Below are positions 13,267 to 32,256 of a DNA stretch of 35,564 nt, in pieces. The position numbers were made by a program, and so were the translations under genes. The notes under the pieces are model-generated. The model saw nothing but the letters and a program-made list of their open reading frames with translations, was not told the DNA's origin and did not search any database. The stretch covers positions 1 to 35,564 of the forward strand of contig CAYTJS010000001.1 of assembly GCA_964438115.1 (NCBI GenBank), in the 5' to 3' direction. Source of the DNA: an uncultured Iamiaceae bacterium. Lineage in GTDB: Bacteria; Actinomycetota; Acidimicrobiia; Acidimicrobiales; DATDAH01. Every line of letters begins with the position of its first letter. The first letter of the stretch is position 1.

Positions 13267-13272
13267 TAGCCT
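13267..13272 (+). promoter_or_regulatory. Candidate -10 (TAGCCT) for a leaderless SDR transcript
   Basis: A TANNNT hexamer ends 6 nt before ATG 13279. The whole divergent intergenic region is only 26 bp. Confidence 0.3.
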
Positions 13273-13278
13273 CCTGCC

Positions 13279-14052
13279 ATGGACGATCGTTCCGTCGCCG
13301 TGGTCACCGGGGCCGGCAGCCCCGACGGGATCGGGCTGGCTGCGGCCCGGGCGCTGGGACGCGGCGGGGCCGCCGTGCTCGTGACCTCCACCACCGACCG
13401 CATCCAGGACCGGGTCGCCGACCTGGCGGCCGAGGACATCGACGCCGTCGGCGTGGTCGCCGACCTCCAGGACCCCGGTGCCGCCGCCGCCCTCGTGGCC
13501 GAGGCCACGGCGGCCTTCGGCCACCTCGACGTGGTCGTCAACAACGCCGGGATGGTCGCCGTCGGCGGCGCGCTGGTCGACGCCCCGACCGACGACTACG
13601 GCGACGACCTGTGGGCCGATGCCCTCGACCGCAACCTGACCACGGCCTTCCGGGTGGCCCGGGCCGCCCTCCCGGCCCTGCGCGCCCGGGGCGGCGGCCG
13701 CATCGTGAACGTCGCCTCGACCAGCGGGCCCGTCCAGGCCTTCGTGGGCGACCCCGGGTACCACGCGGCCAAGGCGGGCATGGTGGGCCTCACCCGGGCC
13801 CTGGCCCTCGAGGTGGCGGCCGACCGCATCACCGTCAACGCCGTGGCCCCCGGCTGGATCGCCACCGCTTCGCAGACCCCCCAGGAGGCGGCCGCCGGCG
13901 CCGCCGGCCCGATGCGCCGCTCGGGCACCCCCGACGAGGTCGCCGCCGCCATCGCCTTCCTCGCCTCCCCCGCCGCCTCCTACGTCACCGGCCAACTCCT
14001 CGTCGTCGACGGCGGCAACTCCCTCCCGGAGGATCACACATCAAACCGGTAG
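13279..14052 (+). CDS. SDR-family oxidoreductase (FabG-like)
   Basis: It has the cofactor motif VVTGAGSPDGIG, an NNAG motif, and the catalytic Y-x3-K (YHAAK). Confidence 0.9.
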   Translation: MDDRSVAVVTGAGSPDGIGLAAARALGRGGAAVLVTSTTDRIQDRVADLAAEDIDAVGVVADLQDPGAAAALVAEATAAFGHLDVVVNNAGMVAVGGALVDAPTDDYGDDLWADALDRNLTTAFRVARAALPALRARGGGRIVNVASTSGPVQAFVGDPGYHAAKAGMVGLTRALALEVAADRITVNAVAPGWIATASQTPQEAAAGAAGPMRRSGTPDEVAAAIAFLASPAASYVTGQLLVVDGGNSLPEDHTSNR

Positions 14053-14714
14053 CCCATGCCGGGCTCGGTGACGAGGTGGCGGGGGTTCGGGGGGTCGGGC
14101 TCGAGCTTGCGGCGGAGGTGGGCCAGGTGGACCCGGAGGGAGTTGGAGGCGTCGCCGTAGTCGGGGCCCCACACCTGGAGCTGGAGGGCCTGGGCCGTGA
14201 CCAGCTTCCCGCGGTTGCGCACCAGCACCTCGAGCAGGTGCCACTCGGTGGGTGTGAGGTGGATCGGCGTCCCGCCGGGGTCGACGACCTGGCGCCGGGC
14301 CAGATCGACGTCGAAGTGCTCGGTGACCACCACGGCGTCCTCCTCGGCGGGGGCGGCCCGGCGCAGGGCCGCCCGCAGGCGGGCCAGCAGCTCGTTCATG
14401 CCGAAGGGCTTGGGGACGTAGTCGTCGGCCCCGGCGTCGAGGGCGGCCACCTTGTCGGCCTCGTCGTGACGGGCCGAAAGGATGATGATCGGCACCGAGT
14501 TCCAGCCCCGCAGGCCCCGCACCACCTCGGTCCCGTCGATCCCCGGCAGCCCGAGGTCGAGGATGACCGCATCGGGGTGCCGCTCGGCGGCCAGGCGCAG
14601 CGCCTGCTCGCCCGTCGAGGCCAGGTCGACCTCGTAGCCCCGGGCCCGCAGGTTGGTGGAGAGGGCCCGCACGATGGCCTCCTCGTCGTCGACCACCAGG
14701 ATCCGTTCGCCCAT
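14034..14714 (-). CDS. kdpE: OmpR-family response regulator KdpE
   Basis: It has a receiver domain (ILVVDDE...DLGLPGIDG). The winged-helix C-terminus follows the KdpE pattern LTPTEWHLLEVLVRNRGKLVT...QVWGPDY...LRVHLAHLRRKLEPDP...LVTEPGMGYRF. Its ATG overlaps the kdpD stop (ATGA). Confidence 0.85.
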   Translation of the reverse strand: MGERILVVDDEEAIVRALSTNLRARGYEVDLASTGEQALRLAAERHPDAVILDLGLPGIDGTEVVRGLRGWNSVPIIILSARHDEADKVAALDAGADDYVPKPFGMNELLARLRAALRRAAPAEEDAVVVTEHFDVDLARRQVVDPGGTPIHLTPTEWHLLEVLVRNRGKLVTAQALQLQVWGPDYGDASNSLRVHLAHLRRKLEPDPPNPRHLVTEPGMGYRFDV

Positions 14715-17230
14715 CAGCGGACTCCTCCCTGCGCCGCCACCGGCAGGCGCACCACCGCCGTGGTCCCCCCGCCGGGGGTGTCGTCCAGCACCAGCTCACC
14801 GTCCATGGCCTCGACCAGGCCCCGGGCGATGGCCAGGCCCAGGCCCAGCCCGTCACCGGCCCGGCGCCGCTCGAAGGGCTCGAAGATCCGCTCCCGGTCG
14901 GCCTCCGGGATGCCGGGGCCGTGGTCGACGACCCGCACGTCGATGCCGGCGGGGACCCGCCCGGCTTCGACCCGGACCCCGGCGGGGGCCGCCTTCAGGG
15001 CGTTGTCGACGAGGTTGTTGACCACCCGCTCGAGCAGGGCCCGGTCGGCCCGCACCGCCGGGAGGCGCTCCTCGACCGCCAGGTCGACCGTCCGGCCCCG
15101 GTCACCCAAGCCGGCCAGGGCGGCGGGCACGACCTCGTCGAGGCCCACGGCGGCCAGTTCCGGCTTCAGCACCCCGGCCCGGAGCCGACCGAGGTCCAGG
15201 AGGTTGGCGACCAGGGCGCTGAGCCGGTCGGTCTCCTCCTCGATGGTGCGGAGGAACTCGTCGACGTCGTCGGGCGACCAGGCCACGTCGTGCTGGCGCA
15301 GGCTGGACACCGAGGCCTTGATCCCGGCCAGCGGCGTCCGCAGATCGTGGGAGACCGAGCGCAACAACGCCGTGCTGAGGTCGTGGGCCTGGGCCAGCTC
15401 GCCGGCCCGCTCGGCCTCGACGGCCAGCCGGCGGGCCTCCACCGCGGAGGAGAGCTGGCCGGCCAGCGCCCCGAGCACCCGGAGGTCGGCCGCTCCCAGC
15501 TCGCGGCCGACGAGGGCCAACACGAGGCCCGGCGCCACCTCGCGGGTGACGTCGGCCTCCTCGGGAACCGTCGGCGCCCGCCCCGCCGTGACCTCGGCCA
15601 CCCAGCCGTCGCCCTCCCGCGCCAGCAGGGCGACGCCCTGCATGCCGAAGGTCGCCTGGAGGTGCTCGACGAGCCCCGGCAGGGCGTCGGCCTCGGCCAG
15701 CGAGCCGGCCAGGGTGGCCATGGCCTCGGCCTCGGCCCGGCTCCGGGCGCTCTCCAGCCCCAGGCGGGCCACCCGGTCGACCAGCACGCAGACGATGCCG
15801 GCCGACAGCAGGAACACGACGAGGGCGATGACCTCCTGGGACTGGGACACGGTGAGGCCGTAGAGGGGATCGGTGAAGTACCAGTCGGCGAGGAGCACGC
15901 CCGCCACCGCGGTGACCAGGGCGGGCACCGTGCCGCCGACCAGGGCCACGGTCAGCGAGAGCAGGAGGTAGAGGAGCAGGACCGCGGGCAGGTGCACCTG
16001 CTCGCGGAGGTTGGCCAGGGCCAGGGTGAGCAGGGGGAGGCCGGCGGCGGCCACCGCCCAGCCCCAGGCCCGCCGACGGGGGGACACGGCGAGCAGCCGG
16101 GTGCGGCCCTGCGGCAGGGGCCGCGGGGCCTGGTCGTCGTCGGAGATCACGTGGACGTCGACCGGGCCGGCGTCACGGACCACCTGGTCGATGACCGATC
16201 CTCGGGAGAGCCGCTCCCAGCGGCTACGACGGCTGGCCCCGAGGACGAGCTGGGTGGCGTTCTCGGCCCGGGCCACGTCGAGCAGGCCGGCGGCCACGTC
16301 GGCGGCCACGACGGTGCGCAGTTCGCCCCCGAAGGAGGCCAGGAGGCGACGGTGCTCGGCCAGTGGCCCCGCGGTGGACTCCGGCGTGGCGTCGTGCTGG
16401 ACGTGCACGCCGACGAGGGTCCCGCCCGACCGTTGGGCCAGCCGGGCGGCCCGCCGCACCAGGTGATCGGTCCCGGGCGCGCCGGTCACGGCCACGAGCA
16501 CCCGTTCCCGGGTGTCCCAGGTCTCGTCGATGCCGTGGCGGCGGCGGTAGTCGGCGAGGGCGTCGTCGGCCCGGTCGGCCAGCCAGCGCAGGGCCAGCTC
16601 GCGGAGGGCCATCAGGTTGCCCTCGCGGAAGTAGTTGCCCAGGGCAGCGTCCACGGCATCGGCGGGGAAGAGGCCACCGCCCGCCAATCGGGCCCGCAAC
16701 TCGGACGGGGGGACGTCCACCAGGGTCACGTCGTCGGCCGACCGCAGCAGCTCGTCGGGTACCGAGCCGGACCGCCGCACGCCGGTCACCCGCTCGGCGA
16801 CGTCGCGCTGGGAGGCGACCTCGTCGATGTCGAGCGCGGTGACGACGTCGATCCCCGCGTCCAAGAGCGCCTCGACGTCCTCGGCCCGCGTGGCGTGCGG
16901 GCTGCCCGGGGGGTTGGGCCGGGCCAGGTCGTCGACGAGGGCCAGCCCGGGGGCCCGGTCGAGGACCGCGGCCAGGTCCAACTCCGGCGCGCCGTCGGCG
17001 CCGACACCCCGGGGGGCGACCACCTCGAGGTCGGCCAGCCCGGCGGCGGTGGCGGGGCGCTCGTGGGGATCGGCGACCGCCACCACCACGTCCTCGCCCC
17101 GGATCCGGCGCCGACGACCCTCGGCCAGCAGGGCCACGGTCTTGCCCGCCCCGGGGGCGGCGCCGAGCATCACCCGCAGTCGGCCGCGACGGCCGGCGAT
17201 CGGCGTTCCCGACTGGCCCACGGGGTTCAC
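14714..17230 (-). CDS. kdpD: Sensor histidine kinase KdpD
   Basis: Full KdpD architecture is present: an N-terminal P-loop domain (GAAPGAGKT), a Usp-like domain, a TM cluster, the H-box SHDLRTPLAGI, and an HATPase C-terminus. GTG start at 17230. Confidence 0.9.
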   Translation of the reverse strand: MNPVGQSGTPIAGRRGRLRVMLGAAPGAGKTVALLAEGRRRRIRGEDVVVAVADPHERPATAAGLADLEVVAPRGVGADGAPELDLAAVLDRAPGLALVDDLARPNPPGSPHATRAEDVEALLDAGIDVVTALDIDEVASQRDVAERVTGVRRSGSVPDELLRSADDVTLVDVPPSELRARLAGGGLFPADAVDAALGNYFREGNLMALRELALRWLADRADDALADYRRRHGIDETWDTRERVLVAVTGAPGTDHLVRRAARLAQRSGGTLVGVHVQHDATPESTAGPLAEHRRLLASFGGELRTVVAADVAAGLLDVARAENATQLVLGASRRSRWERLSRGSVIDQVVRDAGPVDVHVISDDDQAPRPLPQGRTRLLAVSPRRRAWGWAVAAAGLPLLTLALANLREQVHLPAVLLLYLLLSLTVALVGGTVPALVTAVAGVLLADWYFTDPLYGLTVSQSQEVIALVVFLLSAGIVCVLVDRVARLGLESARSRAEAEAMATLAGSLAEADALPGLVEHLQATFGMQGVALLAREGDGWVAEVTAGRAPTVPEEADVTREVAPGLVLALVGRELGAADLRVLGALAGQLSSAVEARRLAVEAERAGELAQAHDLSTALLRSVSHDLRTPLAGIKASVSSLRQHDVAWSPDDVDEFLRTIEEETDRLSALVANLLDLGRLRAGVLKPELAAVGLDEVVPAALAGLGDRGRTVDLAVEERLPAVRADRALLERVVNNLVDNALKAAPAGVRVEAGRVPAGIDVRVVDHGPGIPEADRERIFEPFERRRAGDGLGLGLAIARGLVEAMDGELVLDDTPGGGTTAVVRLPVAAQGGVR

Positions 17231-17262
17231 GCTACGGCCCGGTCCGATGCCGGGAGCGCCGC

Positions 17263-17281
17263 CCTTAACGAGGCCTTAACG
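17263..17281 (+). promoter_or_regulatory. Direct repeat CCTTAACG-N3-CCTTAACG, candidate KdpE (OmpR-type) binding site
   Basis: Two identical 8-mers lie at 17263..17270 and 17274..17281, 11 bp start to start. They are AT-enriched in a GC-rich spacer. They lie just upstream of a candidate -35 (GTGACG 17288..17293) and -10 (TAGCTT 17310..17315) for the transporter gene. Confidence 0.35.
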
Positions 17282-17309
17282 GCCCCGGTGACGGTCCCAC
17301 GGCCACCCG

Positions 17310-17315
17310 TAGCTT
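17310..17315 (+). promoter_or_regulatory. Candidate -10 (TAGCTT) for the KimA-like gene
   Basis: A TANNNT hexamer ends 5 nt before GTG 17321 and 8 nt before ATG 17324. Confidence 0.3.
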
Positions 17316-17323
17316 CCCCGGTG

Positions 17324-19303
17324 ATGGCCTACTCGACCCTGAAGCGCATCATCGTGGGTCGCCCGCTGGAGACCCACCTCGAGCACGAGCAGCGTCTGGG
17401 CAAGCCCACCGCCCTCGCCGTGTTCGCCTCCGACGCCATCTCGTCGACGGCGTACGCCACCGAGGAGATCCTGGCCGTCCTGGTCCCACTGGCGGCCATG
17501 GCCGCCCTCGACTACCTCGTCCCCCTGTCGCTCGTGGTGGTCGTGCTCCTGACCATCGTGGTCACGTCCTACTACCAGACGATCCATGCCTACCCCAGTG
17601 GCGGCGGCTCCTACGTGGTGTCCCGGGAGAACCTGGGCCAGAACGCCTCGCTGGTGGCCGGGGCCTCCCTCCTGGTCGACTACACGCTGACCGTGGCCGT
17701 GTCGATCTCGGCCGGCGTGGCCGCCATCACCTCGGCCGCCCCCGAGCTGCGCGGCCTCGAAGTCCCCATCGGCGTCGGGCTGATCGCCATCCTCACGCTG
17801 GGCAACCTGCGCGGGGTGAAGGAGTCGGGCCGGGTCTTCGCCGTGCCCACCTACGGCTACATCGTCGCCCTGGGCCTGCTCCTCGCCGTGGGCCTCTTCC
17901 GCAGTTACACCGGCTCGCTCCCCCCGCTCCCTGTGAACCAGGAGGCCCTCGACCAGGTCACCGAGAACGGCGCCTTGGTCACCGGGGTCACGCTCTTCGC
18001 CCTGCTCCGGGCCTTCTCGTCGGGCGCCGTGGCCCTGACCGGCGTCGAGGCCATCTCCAACGGTGTCAGCGCCTTCCGGCGGCCCGAGCCCGGCAACGCC
18101 TCCCGGACGCTCATGTGGATGGCCACCATCCTTGGCGGGTTCTTCTTCGCGATCTCGCTGCTGGCCCACCGCCTCCGGCCGACCCTGTCGGAGGACCAGA
18201 CGATCCTGTCGATCATGGGCCGGGCCGTCTTCGGCGGCGACAACCCGATGTATTTCGCCCTGCAGACGTTCACGGCGGCGATCCTCATCCTGGCCGCCAA
18301 CACCGCCTACGCCGACTTCCCCCGGCTGGCGTCGATCATGGCCGGTGACCGGTTCCTGCCCCGCCAGTTCGCCAACCGGGGCGACCGCCTGGTGTTCTCC
18401 AACGGCGTCGTGATCCTGGCCGTGGCCGCCACCACGCTGATCGTGGCCTTCGGCGGCGACACCACGGCCCTGATCCCGCTCTACGCGGTGGGCGTGTTCA
18501 CCGCCTTCACCCTCTCCCAGGCCGGGATGGTCGTCCACCACCGCCGCCTGCGGGAGCCGCACTGGAAGCGGGGCGTCGCCATCAATGCCACCGGCACGGT
18601 GGCCACCTTCATCGTGCTCCTCGTCGTCCTGATCTCGAAGTTCACGATCGGGGCCTGGATCCCCGCCATCCTCATCCCGCTCATCATGGTGGCCCTCAAG
18701 GCCGTCCACCGGCACTACGCCACCGTGGGCCGGTCCCTCGCCGCCCCGGTGGACTGGTCCCCTCCCTCGCGGAGCCACACCGCCGTCGTGTTGCTGGGCG
18801 GCGTGCACCGCAGCTCGCTGCTCGCCGTCGAGTACGCCAAGGTGCTCCACCCCGAGCACCTCGTGGCCCTCACCGTGGCCCAGGACGAGGAGGCCGAGGC
18901 CCGGGTCCGGGCCGACTGGGCGGCCCGCAGCCTCGACATCCCCCTCGAGGTGGTCGAGGCGCCCTACCGCGATCTGGTCCCGCCGGTGCTGGCCTTCCTC
19001 GACGGCCTCGACGCCACCAACGGCGAGGACCACGTCACCACCGTCATCATCCCCGAGTTCGTGGTCCGCAAGTGGTGGGAGCAGTTCTTCCACAACCAGA
19101 ACGCGCTCGCCCTGAAGGCCCGCCTGCTGTTCCGGCCGCGGACGGTGGTGACCTCGGTGCCCTTCCACATCGGCGTCGACGACGAGCCCCAGGGCCCTCC
19201 GCCCTCCGAGGACCCCGTCGAGGAACCGCAGCCGGTCAGCGCCGGATCGGACGGGAGTGGTCCCAGTCGGCCAGGAGCGTCCGCAGCGCCGTCAGGAGGA
19301 TGA
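17324..19303 (+). CDS. kimA: APC-superfamily transporter of the KimA (YdaO) K+/H+ symporter type, with a C-terminal cytoplasmic domain
   Basis: 659 aa from ATG 17324 (or GTG 17321). It carries blocks I recognise from KimA-type proteins: KRIIVGRPL, ALAVFASDAISSTAYATEEIL, SLLVDYTLTVAVSISAG, LTGVEAISN, LAANTAY, RGDRLVFSNG, IPLYAVGVFTAFTLSQAGM and HNQNAL. The 800-aa N-terminal extension of the track ORF is antisense to kdpD. The symbol is tentative and indicates family level only. Confidence 0.8.
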   Translation: MAYSTLKRIIVGRPLETHLEHEQRLGKPTALAVFASDAISSTAYATEEILAVLVPLAAMAALDYLVPLSLVVVVLLTIVVTSYYQTIHAYPSGGGSYVVSRENLGQNASLVAGASLLVDYTLTVAVSISAGVAAITSAAPELRGLEVPIGVGLIAILTLGNLRGVKESGRVFAVPTYGYIVALGLLLAVGLFRSYTGSLPPLPVNQEALDQVTENGALVTGVTLFALLRAFSSGAVALTGVEAISNGVSAFRRPEPGNASRTLMWMATILGGFFFAISLLAHRLRPTLSEDQTILSIMGRAVFGGDNPMYFALQTFTAAILILAANTAYADFPRLASIMAGDRFLPRQFANRGDRLVFSNGVVILAVAATTLIVAFGGDTTALIPLYAVGVFTAFTLSQAGMVVHHRRLREPHWKRGVAINATGTVATFIVLLVVLISKFTIGAWIPAILIPLIMVALKAVHRHYATVGRSLAAPVDWSPPSRSHTAVVLLGGVHRSSLLAVEYAKVLHPEHLVALTVAQDEEAEARVRADWAARSLDIPLEVVEAPYRDLVPPVLAFLDGLDATNGEDHVTTVIIPEFVVRKWWEQFFHNQNALALKARLLFRPRTVVTSVPFHIGVDDEPQGPPPSEDPVEEPQPVSAGSDGSGPSRPGASAAPSGG

Positions 19304-25261: not shown

Positions 25262-27508
25262 TCAGACCAGCGGCCGGAAGCGGCGCAGGCGGAGGCTGTT
25301 GGACACGACGAACACGCTGGACAGGGCCATGGCCCCACCGGCGATCAGGGGGTTGAGGAGGCCAGCGGCGGCCAGGGGGAGGGCGGCCACGTTGTAGGCG
25401 AACGCCCAGAACAGGTTTCCCTTGATCGTGCGGAGGGTGCGGCGGGACAGGCGGATGGCGTCCACGGCCACCAGGAGGTCGCCCCGCACGAGGGTCAGGT
25501 CGCTGGCCTCGATGGCCACGTCGGTCCCGGTGCCCATGGCCACCCCCAGGTCGGCGGCGGCCAGCGCCCCGGCGTCGTTCACGCCGTCGCCCACCATGGC
25601 CACGACCCGGCCCTCCTCCTGGAGGCTGGTGACCGCGGCCACCTTGTCGGCGGGGAGGACCTCGGCGACCACCCGGTCGACGCCGACCTCGGCGGCCACG
25701 GCCTCGGCGGCCGCGCGGTTGTCACCGGTCAGCAGCACGGGCTCGAGGCCGAGGTCCCGCAGGCGCCCGATGGCCTCGGCGCTGGAGGGCTTCACCGTGT
25801 CGGCCACGACGACGACGCCGTGGACCGCACCGTCCCAGGCCACCACGACCGCCGTCCGCCCGTTGGCCTCGGCCCGGAGCTGTTCGGCCCCGAGGTCGTC
25901 GGGGACGGCGAGGCCCCGGTCGGCGAGGAGACGGGCCCGGCCGACCACCACGGCCCGACCCTCGACGACGCCCTCGACGCCGAGCCCCTCGCGGTTGGCG
26001 AAGGACTCGACCGGGGGCAACGGACCCAGCCGCTCGCGAGCAGCGTCGGCCACGGCCCGGGCGATCGGGTGCTCGGAGGCGTCCTCCACCGCGCCGGCCC
26101 GGCGCAGGACCTCGTCGGGGTCGGTGCCCGCGGTGGCCGCCACCGCCACCAGCCCCATCCGGCCGGTGGTCACCGTCCCCGTCTTGTCGAGGACGATGGT
26201 GTCGACCTGGCGGGTGGACTCGAGGATCTCGGGGCCCTTGATGAGGATGCCCAGCTGGGCCCCCCGCCCCGTGCCGACCAGCAGGGCGGTCGGCGTGGCC
26301 AGACCCAGGGCGCAGGGGCAGGCGATGATCAGCACCGCCACGGCCGCCGTCACGGCGGTGGTGGGGTCCTCACCCCGCCCCAACCAGAACCCGAGGGTGG
26401 CCACCGACAGGGCGATGACCACCGGGACGAAGACGGCCGACACCCGATCGGCCAGGCGCTGCACCGGCGCCTTGCCCGACTGGGCCTCGGTCACCAGGCG
26501 GGCGATCTGGGCCAGCGCGGTGTCGCTCCCCACCCGGGTCGCCCGCACCACCAGGCGCCCCCCGGCGTTGACGGTGGCGCCGGCGACCGCGTCGCCCACC
26601 CCCACCTCGACGGGCACCGACTCGCCGGTGAGCAGCGACGCGTCGATGGCGGAGGTGCCCTCCTCGACGACCCCGTCGGTGGCGACCTTCTCGCCGGGAC
26701 GCACGACGAAGCGGTCGCCCACCACGAGCTGGTCGACCGGCACCCGCACCTCCGCGCCGTCCCGCAGCACGGCGACGTCCTTGGCCCCGAGGTCGAGCAA
26801 GGCCCGCAGGGCCGCCCCCGACCGCTTCTTGGCCCTCGCCTCGACGTACCGGCCGGCCAGGAGGAACACCGTCACGGCGGCGGCCACCTCGAGGTAGAGC
26901 TCGTGGGTTCCGGCTCCCCGCTCGACCGAGACCGAGAACGACATGGTCATCCCCGGCGCACCCGCCTCACCCCAGAAGAGGGCGTAGACCGACCAGCCGA
27001 AGGCGGCCAGCGTCCCGATCGAGACGAGGGTGTCCATGGTGGCGGCGCCGTGGCGCAGGTTGAGCCACGCCGCCCGGTGGAACGGCCAGGCCCCCCACAC
27101 CACGACGGGCCCGGCCAGGGCGAAGGCCAGCCACTGCCAGTTGGTGAACTGCAGGGCCGGCACCATCGACAGCACCAGCACGGGCAGGGCCAGGACCGCC
27201 GAGACCAGCAGGCGCTGGCGGAGGTCGGCCAGCTCGGGGTCTTCCTCGTCGGCCGCCCGGGCGCCGTCGACGCCAGCCTCGGTCGCGGTCACTGGCAGGC
27301 GGGCCGAGTAGCCGACGCCCTCGACCACAGCGACCAGGTCCTCGGGGCTGACCGAGCCGTCGGTGGTGACCACGGCGTGCTCGGTGGCGTAGTTGACCGA
27401 GGCCTCGACGCCGTCCAGGCGGTTCAGCTTCTTCTCGATGCGGGCGGCGCAGGAGGCACAGGTCATCCCCCCGATCTCGAGGTCGACGGTGGTGGGCGCG
27501 TCCATCAC
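25262..27508 (-). CDS. copA: Copper-exporting P1B-type ATPase
   Basis: It has an N-terminal HMA domain (GMTCASC), a TM6 CPC motif ([13 protein letters not shown]), DKTGT, SEHPIA and [10 protein letters not shown]. Confidence 0.93.
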
Positions 27509-27672
27509 CCCTCCCCGTGCTCGTGGTCGGCCATGGTGGTGGTCGGGCCGGCCGGCACGGTCGTCGGCGCCGGATCGGACCCGGTCGCCGAGCCGATGCC
27601 GTAGGCGGCGACGAAGACCACCAGCAGCACGCCGGCGAAGGCCAGCAGTCGCCGGGCCGCACCCCCGGTCAT
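27505..27672 (-). CDS. 55-aa membrane-anchored protein with a Met/His-rich C-terminus
   Basis: The protein is [57 protein letters not shown]3 is high. Its ATG overlaps the copZ stop (ATGA) and its stop overlaps the copA GTG (GTGA). Confidence 0.55.
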
Positions 27673-27881
27673 GTCCCGGCCAGCTCGTACCCGGCCTCGT
27701 CGACGGCGGCGGCGACCGCGGCCCGGTCGAGCGGGGCCTCGCTGGTGACCTCGACCCGGCCCGACGCCAGGTCGACGGCCACGTCGAGCACGCCGTCGAG
27801 GGCGGCCACCTCCTCGGTCACCGCCCGGACGCAGTGCGCACAGGTCATCCCGGTCACGACGTAGGTCTGCTGCTCGCTCAC
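27669..27881 (-). CDS. copZ: Copper chaperone CopZ (HMA domain)
   Basis: The protein reads [25 protein letters not shown]... from GTG 27881, with a GGAGGTG Shine-Dalgarno sequence at 27892..27886. The longer 105-aa track ORF runs into the upstream palindrome and operator. Confidence 0.85.
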
Positions 27882-28004: not shown

Positions 28005-29279
28005 TCAGGCGAGGAGTTGGGTCACCGTGTGGAGGACGAGGCCGGCCAGGGCGCCGACGACCGTGCCGTTGATGCGGATGAACTGCAGGTCGGGGCCGAG
28101 CAGCAGCTCGAGGCGCGACGCCGTCTCCTCGGCGTCCCACCGCTCGATGGTCGCCTGCACCAGGGTGACGATCTCGCCCCGGAAGTGCTCGAGGACGTAG
28201 GTCACCGCCGAGGTGAGGGTGGCGTCGAGCCGGGCCGTCTCCTCGGGGTCCTCCAGTCGAGCCCCGGTGGACGCCACCACGGCGGCCAGCCGGGCCCGCA
28301 GGTCGGGGTCGGGCCGCTCCGCCTGGTCGACCAGCCGTCGGCGCAGCTCGCCCCACATCGACCCGACCCACTCGGCCACGTCGGTGCCGGCCAGCACCTC
28401 GGCCTTCAGCTCCTCGCCCCTCGCGAGCAGGTCGGGCGAGGTCTGGAGATCCTCGGCCAGCTGGGCCAGACGTTGGTCGAAGCGCTGCCGCAGGGCGTGG
28501 TCGTCGTCGTCGAGCATCGCCCCGGTCAGGGTTCGCACCCCGTCGACCAGACGCTCGAACAGCCGGTCCTCGGCGGCGCCGGGCAGCCACCACGGCGACG
28601 CCTCGCCGAGCTGGCGACGCAGGTCGCCCCGGTTGGCGTCGATGAAGACGTCGACCTCCCGGAGCACGGTCTCCAGCGCCTGTTGGTGGCGACCGTCGCG
28701 GATGGCGAAGGCCAGGGCCCGTCCCGCCAGCGGCGCCACCGGGGTGGCCGCGATGCGGGCCCGCACCGTGCCCGCCAGGGCCGTGCCCACCTGCTCCTCG
28801 TCGGCCAGGTGGGCCAGCCGGGCGCCGCCGGCCAGCAGCTCGGTGGCCACCCGGTCGGCGTTGGCCGGCTCCTGCAGCCAGGCGGCGAGCCGGGGCACCG
28901 CCCGCGAGGCGTGAAGCCGGTCCATCACGGCGTCGGGGGTGAGGAAGGTCTCCTGGATGAAGGTGCCGAGGGTCTCGGCGAACTGGTCCTTGCGGGCCAC
29001 GATCACCGCGGTGTGGGGGATGGGCACCCCCAAGGGGTGGCGGAACAGGGCCACCACGGCGAACCAGTCGGCCAGGCCGCCGACCATCGCCGCCTCGGCG
29101 GTGGCCTGGACATAGCCCGCCCAGGTGGCGTCACCGCCCCAGAGCGTCACGGCCAGGAACACGGTGGTCACCGCCGCCAGCAGGGCGGTGGCCCGCCGCT
29201 TCATGACCACCAGGCGCCGGGCCCGGGTCTCGGCACCGGTCACCGGTGGCAGGGCGGCGGTGGTCGTGGCCTCGGTCAT
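28005..29279 (-). CDS. DUF445 (YjiN-like) membrane protein
   Basis: It has the signature GGLADWFAVVALFRHPLGVPIPHTAVIVARK and a C-terminal TM segment (INGTVVGALAGLVLH). ATG 29279 overlaps the ATPase stop (ATGA). The rest of the 1109-aa track ORF is an out-of-frame reading of the ATPase gene. Confidence 0.8.
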   Translation of the reverse strand: MTEATTTAALPPVTGAETRARRLVVMKRRATALLAAVTTVFLAVTLWGGDATWAGYVQATAEAAMVGGLADWFAVVALFRHPLGVPIPHTAVIVARKDQFAETLGTFIQETFLTPDAVMDRLHASRAVPRLAAWLQEPANADRVATELLAGGARLAHLADEEQVGTALAGTVRARIAATPVAPLAGRALAFAIRDGRHQQALETVLREVDVFIDANRGDLRRQLGEASPWWLPGAAEDRLFERLVDGVRTLTGAMLDDDDHALRQRFDQRLAQLAEDLQTSPDLLARGEELKAEVLAGTDVAEWVGSMWGELRRRLVDQAERPDPDLRARLAAVVASTGARLEDPEETARLDATLTSAVTYVLEHFRGEIVTLVQATIERWDAEETASRLELLLGPDLQFIRINGTVVGALAGLVLHTVTQLLA

Positions 29280-31840
29280 CGGCGGGAACCCGCCAAGGCC
29301 CGGCGGCGACGCCACCACTTGTCGGCGGCGTCGGCAGTGAGGACGGCCGGCACCGAGGCCAGGGCCACCATCACGCCGAGCAGGGTCGGCCACGCCTGGT
29401 CGAGGGCCCCGGCCAGCGCCGGCACGAGCAGGCAGGCCAGCCCGATCGCCAGTTCCACGGCCACCGCGACCAGCAGCAGCCGGTTGCCCGTCAGCAAGGT
29501 CCAGGAGAACGGCCGACGCGAGCTGCGGCAGGCGATGGCGTTGGCCGACTGCGCCAGGATCACGGTGAGGAAGGCGGCACCCGACGCCGTGGCCAGCAGG
29601 GCCGTCGACGGCTCGGGCCCGCCGAACGCCCAGCCCCCGACCGCCAGGACGGCGATGAACCCGCCCATCTCGATCAGGGCCTCGGTGGGTCCGAGGACGC
29701 CGAAGGCCCGCCGCCCCACGGTCCGGTCGAAGAGTCGACCCCGCTCGGGAGGTCGGTCCAGGACCTGGTCGCGAGGGACCTCGGCCCCCAGGGCCACGGC
29801 CGAGAAGGTGTCGGTGCCGAGGTCGAGGGCCAGCACCTGCATCACCCCGAGGGCCAACGGGATCGACCGGCCCGAGAGGGCCCAGACGGCGAAGGGGGTC
29901 AGCTCGGCCACGTTGTCGGTCAGGTGGTAGGTGAGGAAGCGCCGGATGTTGGCGAAGGCGGCCCGGCCTTGGGCGATGGCGTCGACGATCGTCGAGAACC
30001 GATCGTCGAGCAGCACCAGGTCGGCGGCGTCGCGGGCCACGTCGGTGCCGACCCCACCCATGGCCACGCCGATGTCGGCCTTCTGGAGGGCGGGGCCGTC
30101 GTTGACCCCGTCGCCGGTCATGGCCACGACGTGGCCCCGCGCTTGCAGGGCCCCGGCGATGCGCAGCTTCTGTTCGGGGCTGACCCGGCTGAGGACGATG
30201 CCATCGTGGTCGACCAGCTCCCCCAGGGCGGCGTCGTCGTCGGGCAGCTCGGCTCCGGTCACCACCGGCGCACCCGGCCGCCACAGCCCGACCTCCTCGG
30301 CGATGGCCCGGGCCGTGGCCGGGTGGTCCCCGGTCACCATGGCCACGTGGACACCGGCCCGCCGGCAGTCGGCCAGGGCCTGGCAGGCGTCGGCCCGGGG
30401 TGGGTCCTCGAAGCCCAGGAGGGCGAGGAGGCGCAGGTCGCTCTCGGCCGCCTGGGCGTCGGCGGGAGGCGTCGGGCCGGTCGGGCGGGAGGCCACCGCG
30501 AGCACGCGCAGGCCCCGACCGGTCAACTCGTCGAGCGCCTCGGCCGCGCCCCTCACGGGGCCACAGCGGGGCAGGACGGCATCGGGGGCCCCCTTCACGA
30601 GCACCTGGCCATCGGCCACCACCGACATGCGTCGGCGCCTGGGGTCGAAGGGGAAGCGGCGGGTGACGGCGGGGGCGGGGGGGACCTCCAGGCGACGGGC
30701 GAGGACGTCGACGGCCGCCTCCATCGGGTCGCCCTGGGCCCGCCAGACCCCGTCGTCGAGCACGGCGTGGCCCGTCGAGCACGCCCGGCCCGCCCACGCC
30801 GCGTGCGTCAGGGCCAGGCGCGCCGACGGGTCGGCCTCGACGGCGGCTTCGGGCTCGTAGCCCTCGCCGTGCACCCGGGCCGACCCGTCGGGCGTCCAGG
30901 CCGCCACCACGGCCATCTGGTTGCGGGTGAGGGTGCCGGTCTTGTCGGTGCAGATGAAGGTGGTCGACCCCAGCGTCTCCACCGACTCGAGATGGCGGAC
31001 CAGGGCCTGGCGCTCGGCCATGCGCTGGGCGCCGATGGCCAGGGAGAGGGTGGTGGTGGGCAGCAGGCCCTCGGGCACCAGCGCCACCGTGATGCCGATG
31101 GCGAAGAGGAAGCCGTCGCTGGGCGGCTGGCCCAACACCAGCATGAGGGCGAAGAAGGCACCGCCCACGCTCACGGCGATCACCGCGATCAGGCGCACCA
31201 CCCGACGCAACTCGACGGTGAGCGGGCTGGGTGGGCGCTCGGCGGCCCGGGCCAGGGCGGCGATGCCCGCCAGCAGGGTGTCGGCTCCGGTGGCCACCAC
31301 CTCGGCCCGGCCTTCGCCCTCGACCACGAAGCAACCGGCGGGGACGGCGTCGCCCTCGTCGAGCGCGGCGGGGACGCTCTCACCGGTGAGGGTCGAGGTG
31401 TCGAGGGCCAGGGCGTGGGCCTCGGTGCAGGTGAGGTCGGCCGAGATGCGGTCACCCGCCCCGAGCACGACGAGGTCGCCGACCACGAGGTCCCGGACAT
31501 CGATGTCGACCTGGCGGCCGTCGCGCACGACGGTGGCCCGCCGGGGGATGAGGTCGCGCAGGCGCTCGGTGGTGTGGAGGGACCGGCGCTCCTGGGCGAA
31601 GGCGAAGATGCCGTTCAGCACCACGACGGCGGCGATGGCCACGCCCAGCTGGGGCAGATCGGCCACCACGGCCAGGGCCGCCGCCGCCCAGAGCATGAGG
31701 GCGAAGAAGTGGACGAACTGCCCGAGCAGCTGGCGCCACGCCGCCGGGGGCGGTGGGGCGGGCAGCTCGTTGGACCCGTCCCGGGCGAGGCGTTCCGCCG
31801 CCTCGCCGCTGGTCAGCCCCGCCGGTGCCACGCCCGCCAT
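29276..31840 (-). CDS. Cation-transporting P-type ATPase, P2-like (Ca2+/Mg2+/alkali-cation type)
   Basis: It has an N-terminal GLTSGEAAERLARDGSNEL, a TM4 PEGL motif, ICTDKTGTLT, MVTGDHPATA and MTGDGVNDGPALQKADIGVAMG. It has no CPC motif or HMA domain. Confidence 0.9.
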   Translation of the reverse strand: MAGVAPAGLTSGEAAERLARDGSNELPAPPPPAAWRQLLGQFVHFFALMLWAAAALAVVADLPQLGVAIAAVVVLNGIFAFAQERRSLHTTERLRDLIPRRATVVRDGRQVDIDVRDLVVGDLVVLGAGDRISADLTCTEAHALALDTSTLTGESVPAALDEGDAVPAGCFVVEGEGRAEVVATGADTLLAGIAALARAAERPPSPLTVELRRVVRLIAVIAVSVGGAFFALMLVLGQPPSDGFLFAIGITVALVPEGLLPTTTLSLAIGAQRMAERQALVRHLESVETLGSTTFICTDKTGTLTRNQMAVVAAWTPDGSARVHGEGYEPEAAVEADPSARLALTHAAWAGRACSTGHAVLDDGVWRAQGDPMEAAVDVLARRLEVPPAPAVTRRFPFDPRRRRMSVVADGQVLVKGAPDAVLPRCGPVRGAAEALDELTGRGLRVLAVASRPTGPTPPADAQAAESDLRLLALLGFEDPPRADACQALADCRRAGVHVAMVTGDHPATARAIAEEVGLWRPGAPVVTGAELPDDDAALGELVDHDGIVLSRVSPEQKLRIAGALQARGHVVAMTGDGVNDGPALQKADIGVAMGGVGTDVARDAADLVLLDDRFSTIVDAIAQGRAAFANIRRFLTYHLTDNVAELTPFAVWALSGRSIPLALGVMQVLALDLGTDTFSAVALGAEVPRDQVLDRPPERGRLFDRTVGRRAFGVLGPTEALIEMGGFIAVLAVGGWAFGGPEPSTALLATASGAAFLTVILAQSANAIACRSSRRPFSWTLLTGNRLLLVAVAVELAIGLACLLVPALAGALDQAWPTLLGVMVALASVPAVLTADAADKWWRRRRALAGSRR

Positions 31841-31860
31841 CGTGCCAGGGGCCGGGCCGG

Positions 31861-31866
31861 TACGGT
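31861..31866 (+). promoter_or_regulatory. Candidate -10 (TACGGT) for a leaderless SnoaL-like transcript
   Basis: A TANNNT hexamer ends 6 nt before ATG 31873. The divergent intergenic region is only 32 bp. Confidence 0.3.
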
Positions 31867-31872
31867 CACCCG

Positions 31873-32256
31873 ATGGCCGAGGGCATGGTCGCCGAGTTGC
31901 TCGCCGCCAACGGCGCGTTCTACGAGGCCCACGAGGCCCGGGACCTGGCGGCCATGACCGCGCTGTGGGAGCACAGCGATCGGGCCACCTGCATCCACCC
32001 TGGTTGGCCCATCCTGCGGGGCTGGCCCGAGGTCGAGGCGTCGTGGGCCCGGATCTTCGACGGACCCGGTCGCTTGCAGTTCATCGTGACCAACGAGGCC
32101 GTCACCGCCGAGGGCGATCTGGCCTGGGTCACCCTCGACGAGAACCTGGTGACCGACGGCGCCACGGGCACCGTGGCCGCGACCAACCTGTGGGCCCGTA
32201 CCGCGGCCGGGTGGCGCCTGGTGCTCCACCACGGCTCGCCGGTGGCGGGCCGCTAG
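31873..32256 (+). CDS. SnoaL-like / NTF2-fold (DUF4440-type) protein
   Basis: 127 aa from ATG 31873. The sequence NGAFYEAHEARDLAAMTALWEHSDRATCIHPGWP...NLWARTAAGWRLVLHHGSP is the typical pattern of this family. Confidence 0.75.
   Translation: MAEGMVAELLAANGAFYEAHEARDLAAMTALWEHSDRATCIHPGWPILRGWPEVEASWARIFDGPGRLQFIVTNEAVTAEGDLAWVTLDENLVTDGATGTVAATNLWARTAAGWRLVLHHGSPVAGR

Follow-up and report, generated by a model that had tools for sequence, protein, structure and literature searches.

KdpD and KdpE form the textbook two-component system for K+ limitation, and the accepted transporter target of the pair is the Kdp pump. Here we analyse a 35,564-nt contig stretch of an uncultured Iamiaceae bacterium (hereafter the window), in which kdpD and kdpE lie back to back with a gene for a homologue of the K+/H+ symporter KimA. 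The window has ~74% G+C; long spurious open reading frames (ORFs) are common at such G+C, and real genes were picked out by codon-position G+C (GC3). The plus-strand frame that carries the transporter is open from 14921 onward. The locus has the following layout:

13270-14052, plus strand: SDR gene, convergent with kdpE and overlapping the 3' end of kdpE by 19 bp
14034-14714, minus strand: kdpE, 226 aa, OmpR/PhoB-family response regulator by Pfam and NCBIfam
14714-17230, minus strand: kdpD, 838 aa, five-domain sensor kinase; alternative GTG start at 17221
17231-17323: divergent intergenic region of 93 bp, a predicted bidirectional KdpE-controlled promoter region
17324-19303, plus strand: kimA, 659 aa, KUP-family K+/H+ symporter homologue that has a membrane domain and, as in KimA, a cytoplasmic C-terminal domain

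This analysis confirmed the locus as described in a first-pass annotation of the same DNA. The kdpD-kdpE pair is complete in its Pfam domains and has KdpD and KdpE as best NCBIfam families, the divergent 659-aa transporter gene lies across a 93-bp spacer at 17231-17323, and a convergent SDR gene (13270-14052, plus strand) follows kdpE. One detail was misread: the stop of kdpD and the start of kdpE meet in TGATG, with one shared base, and not in ATGA. The annotation had also placed kdpFABC on neither side of kdpDE, and Pfam scans of the GC3-supported ORFs of the 35.5-kb window, that is, of this contig only, detected no KdpA, KdpB or KdpC. The canonical adjacency of kdpFABC and kdpDE, which sister lineages have, is thus missing from 35.5 kb.

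The transporter and the sensor kinase

When all PDB chains were searched with the transporter by phmmer, the sole match at E <= 1 was Bacillus subtilis KimA (6S3K), at E = 9.3e-143, and no amino-acid transporter appeared among the PDB chains at that cutoff. The alignment runs from residue 3 to 616 of the query and from 2 to 605 of the chain, so the cytoplasmic domain is covered. A preprint names eight residues of KimA that coordinate or transport K+ (D36, Y43, D117, T121, S125, T230, E233 and Y377), and all eight are identical in the window protein (D37, Y44, D119, T123, S127, T239, E242 and Y387). The KimA-type call of the first-pass annotation is upheld by both the search and the residues. 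On this sequence evidence, which we regard as decisive, the protein is assigned as a full-length KimA homologue, and it would be expected to transport K+. Beyond the aligned region lies one further feature:

19176-19303, plus strand: C-terminal tail of KimA, residues 618-659 (the last ~45), rich in Pro/Ser/Gly/Ala and probably disordered

This Pro/Ser/Gly/Ala-rich tail is missing from B. subtilis KimA, and the 6S3K alignment stops at residue 616.

Could the gene instead encode an ordinary APC amino-acid or polyamine permease, with a pairing that has nothing to do with potassium? The sole above-threshold Pfam match is PF13520 (AA_permease_2, 107 bits), NCBIfam returned no match for the protein, and source records call its homologues 'amino acid transporter' or 'APC family permease'. 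Against this stand the full-length KimA-only match, which includes the KimA-specific cytoplasmic domain, the eight K+-site residues, a weak match to PF02705 (K_trans), and the co-occurrence of the homologues with kdp, kup and trkA genes. Given the K+-site residues and the KimA-only PDB match, we reject the permease reading and regard it as highly improbable.

The sensor kinase has the Pfam order KdpD (PF02702), Usp, DUF4118 (transmembrane, TM), HisKA and HATPase_c, all above cutoffs. Its best NCBIfam family is KdpD at 420 bits, below the equivalog cutoff of 1123 bits. The gene directly after it encodes a protein with Response_reg and Trans_reg_C domains, whose best NCBIfam family, KdpE, scores 243 bits, 54 bits over the next family and under the 325-bit cutoff; we assign it as a probable KdpE from this best match together with the gene context. 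It shares 74% identity with the KdpE that a kdpFABCDE operon encodes in a related contig (L002; related loci carry L numbers below). Two parts of KdpD differ in their state:

14735-15370, minus strand: HisKA and HATPase_c core of KdpD, residues 621-832, intact, with the H-box SHDLRTPL and the G-boxes present
16571-17191, minus strand: KdpD N-terminal domain, residues 14-220, degenerate

The motif residues of this domain are numbered here as in the E. coli protein. The numbers agree with those in PMC11018627, where the N-terminal domain of E. coli KdpD is described as an atypical serine kinase that phosphorylates KdpB at Ser162 and requires Walker A (G-X5-GKT), W39, D109/E110 of Walker B and R190. 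In the window, W39 (the aromatic residue after GKT) is V, Walker B VDELAHTN is VDDLARPN (E110 to D), and the block NVQHLESLND reads DIDEVASQRD; this block is otherwise invariant and is lost in the window clade (the window protein, P0123 and P0124). Walker A and the R190 equivalent are retained. With W39 and E110 changed, the window KdpD departs from the serine-kinase motif. We then counted deviations at columns at least 90% conserved, with 112 full-length homologues for comparison:

N-terminal domain: 33-36 of 120 columns deviate in the window clade (33 of 120 in the window); other homologues, median 2, maximum 23
Usp: 5-6 of 63 columns in the window clade; others, median 2, maximum 6
TM: 1 of 22 columns; others, median 0, maximum 5
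Linker: 0 of 18 columns; others, median 0, maximum 4
Kinase core: 8 of 89 columns; others, median 2, maximum 9

The ratio of nonsynonymous to synonymous substitution rates (dN/dS) was computed between the window and L163, a 90%-identical relative, at a synonymous divergence of ~0.4. It is 0.25 for the N-terminal domain of KdpD, 0.07 for its histidine-kinase core, 0.015 for KdpE and 0.12 for KimA. These values suggest that the signalling half of KdpD is in use and that selection on the pump-directed half is relaxed, short of neutral. Since KdpE and the kinase core have such low ratios, some regulatory target must exist. Decay confined to the N-terminal domain, beside a constrained kinase core and KdpE, is also indirect evidence, not proof, that the window clade has no KdpB left to control.

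The direct repeat in the spacer

The 93-bp spacer and its edges hold three predicted elements:

17229-17234, minus strand: -10-like hexamer TAGCGT of kdpD, 28 nt left of the box; GTG at 17230 and 17221
17263-17281: predicted KdpE box, an exact direct repeat CCTTAACG-agg-CCTTAACG (N3) of 8-bp units with an 11-bp period
17310-17315, plus strand: -10-like hexamer TAGCTT of kimA, 28 nt right of the box; followed by GTG at 17321 and ATG at 17324

OmpR/PhoB-family regulators bind sites of this type, tandem direct repeats spaced by one helical turn. This is the sole exact match of CCTTAACG-N3-CCTTAACG in the window, where 0.16 matches with <=3 mismatches would be expected by chance. Symmetrically about the box stands an inverted repeat of two heptamers, GCTACGG and CCGTAGC. 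The -10 elements were assigned by conservation, since an E. coli-type scan says little at 74% GC. In this arrangement the spacer would contain two divergent, probably leaderless promoters with one shared operator centred ~50 bp from each start, and the kimA mRNA is probably leaderless or nearly so, with a predicted leader of 0-3 nt.

To our knowledge, a c-di-AMP riboswitch is the one mode of control described so far for kimA expression. A search of the whole window against Rfam at the gathering score returned no family, and 17000-17600 gave none even at E <= 1. We therefore reject riboswitch control here, with no Rfam match and essentially no leader predicted, in line with the earlier remark that the spacer is too short for one.

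The layout upstream of kimA, CTTAACG-N4-CTTAACG, N28, TAGC[GT]T, N4-7, GTG, is kept in five lineages. Besides the window, it was seen in the following loci, in L002 with deviations:

L165: KdpD 98% identical, same species; box-N28 layout kept
L163: KdpD 90% identical, gene arrangement as in the window; box-N28 layout kept
L164: KimA 78% identical; box-N28 layout kept
L001: KimA 76% identical, kdpDE not nearby; box-N28 layout kept
L083: KimA 79% identical, kdpDE not nearby; box-N28 layout kept
L002: KimA 77% identical; N29 spacing, second half-site degenerate

Among these loci the sequence between the box and the hexamers has diverged, and the box and hexamers are retained. L163 keeps the box and both -10 hexamers of the window, including the kdpD-side TAGCGT-N7-GTG; their survival at a synonymous divergence of ~0.4 amounts to a phylogenetic footprint. 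In L001 and L083 a co-directional pyrophosphatase gene lies upstream of kimA, so the box kept there is part of kimA's own promoter. Its retention in these two loci, with no adjacent kdpDE, fits regulation in trans.

Farther away, three Streptosporangiales loci (KimA 36-39% identical) have CCTAACG-gat-CCTTAACG upstream of kimA, again with an 11-bp period. Four tandem half-sites precede kimA in L126, CTTACG repeats do so in L007 and L008, and CTTGAG repeats in L012, also with this period. With <=3 mismatches allowed at the 14 defined positions, the box was found upstream of kimA in 8 regions out of a non-redundant set of 78, and in 0.2% of random 163-nt windows. A search of 2.12 Mb of related loci, both strands included, gave 13 matches with <=2 mismatches, and all 13 lie beside kimA, a kdp operon or kdpE; among them are promoters of kdp operons, intergenic regions between kdpE and kimA in distant lineages, and the Streptosporangiales loci with a KimA of 36-39% identity. 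As the consensus was built from the window and its relatives, both counts are partly circular or due to shared ancestry. The matches in distant lineages are independent evidence.

What links this box to KdpE is its likeness to sites at kdp operons. The kdp-operon promoters of L002, L166 and L168 have GT[TA]GAGA-acgc-GTTGAGG, 26 nt upstream of TA[CG]ACC-N6-GTG. On the opposite strand, the kimA box reads CGTTAAGG-N3-CGTTAAGG, and one base per half-site differs from the kdp-operon boxes. A same-strand match to those boxes through a TTrAs core was considered and set aside, the reverse-complement match being clearly better. The footprinted minimal KdpE site of Mycobacterium smegmatis, CCGTAAAGAAACCATCAAGGCC (PMC5401905), has the same half-site type and 11-bp period, and its reverse complement is 3/14 off CTTAACG-N4-CTTAACG. 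In the window clade, L164, L003-5, L032 and L158, the box is also flanked by kimA on one side and by kdpE or a kdpDE operon on the other. Taken together, these likenesses make KdpE the likely binder of the box, as a predicted operator.

The recognition helix of KdpE is NSLRVHLAHLRRKL in three kimA-adjacent systems (window, L163 and L164) and NYLRVHLAHLRAKL in kdpFABC-linked ones (L002 and L166-L168). This difference (NSLRV..RRKL vs NYLRV..RAKL) loosely parallels that between GTTAAG and GTTGAG half-sites. It may reflect co-variation of helix and box, or shared ancestry alone; the pattern is inconsistent across L001 and L002, and we make no claim from it.

Another regulator, of OmpR/PhoB type or different, might own the direct repeat, with kdpDE nearby through incidental clustering of K+ genes. 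Most KimA homologues do not adjoin kdpDE, L001 and L083 retain the box with no neighbouring kdpE, and kimA, kup, trkA and kdp cluster in variable combinations in the clade, all of which would suit that explanation. It does not account for near-matches that occur only beside kimA, kdp or kdpE, bona fide kdp promoters included, nor for the resemblance of the box to the footprinted M. smegmatis site. We consider it improbable. The box is also presumably unlike the PhoP, MtrA and GlnR boxes of Actinobacteria.

Related loci and the proposed regulation

A genome scan seeded with six peptide patterns from KdpD gave 80 loci, with a best match of 48% identity; about 55 of them were unrelated histidine kinases from other phyla. 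It also yielded 24 actinobacterial loci in which a KdpD-like kinase is followed by KdpE (48-65% identical), from Gaiellaceae, other Thermoleophilia-like metagenome-assembled genomes, Streptosporangiaceae and Nocardiopsis. A KimA gene adjoins 23 of these 24 pairs, the exception being a contig that ends just past kdpE, and kdpABC is also present in only 4-5 of them. The paired kinases in these distant loci consist of DUF4118-HisKA-HATPase, without the KdpD and Usp domains. The Gaiellaceae order is kinase-kdpE-usp-kimA, and the KimA there is ~789 aa long with a tandemly duplicated cytoplasmic C-terminal domain (L017:11887-14256; similar in L011-L014, L019, L021-L023, L026, L027 and L032). Two loci, L006:5159-17583 and L026:1196-14541, have two paralogous pairs of KdpD-like kinase and KdpE each, one at kdpF-A-C-B and one at usp-kimA. 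L006 has a separate KdpD/Usp chain after kdpF-A-C-B, and the L026 contig ends inside kdpB. In both, the gene order is kdpA-kdpC-kdpB.

Closer to the window, the nearest KdpD homologues beyond its clade are 60-64% identical. Three of them (in L166, L167 and L168), and the KdpD of L002 as well, are encoded in an operon of the order DUF4118 protein - small ORFs - kdpF-A-B-C - kdpD - kdpE - kup; the L167 contig ends before the operon start, and L002 has kimA directly upstream of the kdp operon. One further genome has a different composition:

L164:5478-13296 (GCA_030152665.1, JASLIZ010000148.1): DUF4118 - 42-aa ORF - trkA - trkA - kimA2 - kdpD - kdpE

In L164, trkA-trkA-kimA2, which encodes two RCK proteins and a second KimA, fills the slot that kdpFABC has in sister genomes, and the box is shared with the first kimA, which points the other way; the kimA2 product has 791 aa and shares 42% identity with the KimA of the window. 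Only kdpDE remains in the window, L165 and L163, directly against the box. It appears that kdpDE accompanies changing sets of K+ importers, with the window as the most reduced state.

These relatives bear on another alternative, in which the locus is the remnant of a kdp operon. The kdpFABC genes would have been deleted or moved, the box would be the old autoregulated kdp promoter that now drives kdpDE, KdpE would repress kimA or have no control over it, and the pump target would lie elsewhere in the genome. The closest outgroup KdpDs are all in DUF4118-kdpFABC-kdpDE-kup operons, the box is oriented toward kdpD as in kdp promoters (spacing N28 vs N26), and KdpD still has its Walker A motif. 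Yet the box lies at exactly N28 from the kimA -10 hexamer in L001 and L083, where there is no divergent kdp gene for it to serve. A degenerate KdpB-directed domain would be unexpected if the pump were still controlled, and strong purifying selection on KdpE and the kinase core implies a target. We judge a remnant operon unlikely, though less so than an unrelated owner of the repeat.

We think instead that KdpDE most likely controls KimA, in place of the Kdp pump or besides it, and put the probability of this at roughly 60%. The first-pass annotation had proposed that the system may drive a KimA-type transporter, and the geometry of the box, its specificity and the domain-specific decay of KdpD lend computational support to that idea. 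When K+ is low, KdpE would be phosphorylated by the histidine-kinase half of KdpD, which is intact, and a KdpE~P dimer would bind the single repeat CCTTAACG-N3-CCTTAACG, 28 nt upstream of both -10-like hexamers. The two divergent promoters would have weak -35 regions, and KdpE would most likely activate the leaderless kimA transcript on one side and kdpDE on the other. KimA would then give K+ uptake driven by the proton-motive force. The ancestral kdpDE would have belonged to a DUF4118-kdpFABC-kdpDE-kup operon, from which the pump genes have gone at this locus, and the KdpB-directed domain would have lost its motifs. We infer KdpE binding, activation rather than repression, and the leaderless starts from sequence; the loss of kdpFABC may extend to the whole genome.

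Several observations weigh against control of KimA by KdpDE, besides the partial circularity of the box enrichment. Seen from kimA, the box usually runs opposite to the boxes of kdp-operon promoters, although L032 and L158 show the kdp orientation. KdpE might thus act as a repressor of kimA, or the -10 hexamers may have been wrongly assigned. Among 80 metagenomic KimA loci, many of them on short contigs, 6 have KdpE, a KdpD-like kinase or kdpABC in the available flank. Scanning the spacer for E. coli-type promoters and terminators gave nothing, as expected at 74% GC. KdpD retains Walker A, and the dN/dS of 0.25 for its N-terminal domain is below neutral. Finally, kdpFABC may be present on another contig of the same genome.

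A broader version of the proposal is that the pump has been lost, that KdpDE controls only KimA and itself while the serine-kinase half decays, and that a mini-KdpD with KdpE and KimA forms a widespread Actinomycetota regulon in place of the c-di-AMP riboswitch control known from Firmicutes. We hold this more tentatively, at somewhat less than even odds.

Other observations concern the surroundings of these genes. The order MerB-ppa-[box]-kimA-SDR-CoA transferase-thiolase is common to L001 and L164, and in L164 ppa and the box are set apart by the complete operon with kdpDE, in inverted orientation. Recombination or insertion of K+ gene cassettes may take place at the box region. A stand-alone DUF4118 membrane protein (mostly ~250 aa), which corresponds to the transmembrane sensor domain of KdpD with no kinase, heads the kdp operons of this Acidimicrobiia-like clade (L002:12003-12776, L164:5478-6215, L166:4574-5044 and L168:4573-5343). 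A diadenylate cyclase gene (DAC domain) lies at L002:661-1644, ~9 kb upstream of the kimA-kdp-kup cluster; because of this gene, c-di-AMP signalling probably exists in the clade despite the riboswitch-less kimA. The window also encodes two other P-type ATPases, both 6-10 kb from kimA and neither of them KdpB:

25262-27817, minus strand: HMA-domain heavy-metal P-type ATPase
29276-32080, minus strand: P2-type cation pump with Cation_ATPase_N/C

On the contig of L165, which is near-identical, the HMA pump gene is followed by one for a CsoR-like metal repressor (Trns_repr_metal).

Comparison with known systems

The first-pass annotation considered the wiring uncharacterised, and this appears to be so: a full-text search found no paper on KdpE control of kimA or on a KdpDE-KimA module, a provisional result, as subscription journals lie mostly outside its coverage. 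What is new here, provisionally, is that a known sensor and a known transporter are joined by wiring without a published description. If the proposal is true, KdpDE has a second output, the proton-coupled KimA, reached through a KdpE-type operator with a defined motif and promoter geometry. Thousands of actinobacterial genes that carry the label 'amino acid transporter' or 'APC family permease' probably encode K+ importers. The locus is, in addition, a natural experiment on the 2024 finding of a KdpB-specific serine kinase in the KdpD N-terminus: of all KdpD domains, only the N-terminal one has shed its conserved motifs here, at a locus that the pump genes have left.

B. subtilis KimA (YdaO, 6S3K) belongs to the same family over its full length and has the same K+-binding residues. 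The presumed logic is also alike, with expression when K+ is scarce. The difference lies in the control, a ydaO-type c-di-AMP riboswitch in B. subtilis and, in the riboswitch-less window, predicted transcriptional control by a response regulator. In M. tuberculosis, ceoB/ceoC (TrkA-TrkA) stand beside the gene of the APC protein Rv2690c and are not known to have an established membrane partner. The trkA-trkA-kimA2 order of L164 recalls such TrkA-TrkA and APC clusters; the window has no trkA genes.

The classical KdpD/KdpE-kdpFABC systems of E. coli and M. smegmatis (PMC5401905) resemble the window in their five-domain KdpD, OmpR-type KdpE and stop/start overlap coupling. Ahead of a weak promoter they have a direct-repeat operator of 11-bp period, as is predicted for the window, and the half-sites of the window, CGTTAAG on the reverse strand, resemble CCGTAAAGAAACCATCAAGGCC. 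The window differs in that no kdpFABC lies within 35.5 kb, that the neighbour sharing the predicted operator is a secondary K+/H+ symporter, and that the domain for the KdpB-directed serine kinase is degenerate.

Split KdpD systems have also been described, in which the serine-kinase chain (KdpD/Usp) is separate from the histidine-kinase chain (PMC11018627). The Gaiellaceae loci L006, L010 and L015 are of this kind, where kdpB is followed by the gene of a KdpD/Usp chain and KdpE comes with a distinct DUF4118-HisKA-HATPase kinase, which indicates that the two functions of KdpD are separable. The KimA-paired kinases are the short ones without the N-terminal domain, whereas the window KdpD is fused and its serine-kinase half has decayed in place. 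No link of split chains to KimA is described in the literature that we found on split KdpD. KdpE regulons that extend beyond kdp, known from virulence genes in Staphylococcus aureus and enteric bacteria (PMC3610689) and from chromatin immunoprecipitation sequencing in Caulobacter (bioRxiv 10.1101/2023.07.05.547876), are a precedent for KdpE at promoters other than that of kdpFABC. The targets there are not K+ transporters that replace the pump, whereas the predicted target in the window is an alternative K+ uptake system at a locus from which the pump is missing.

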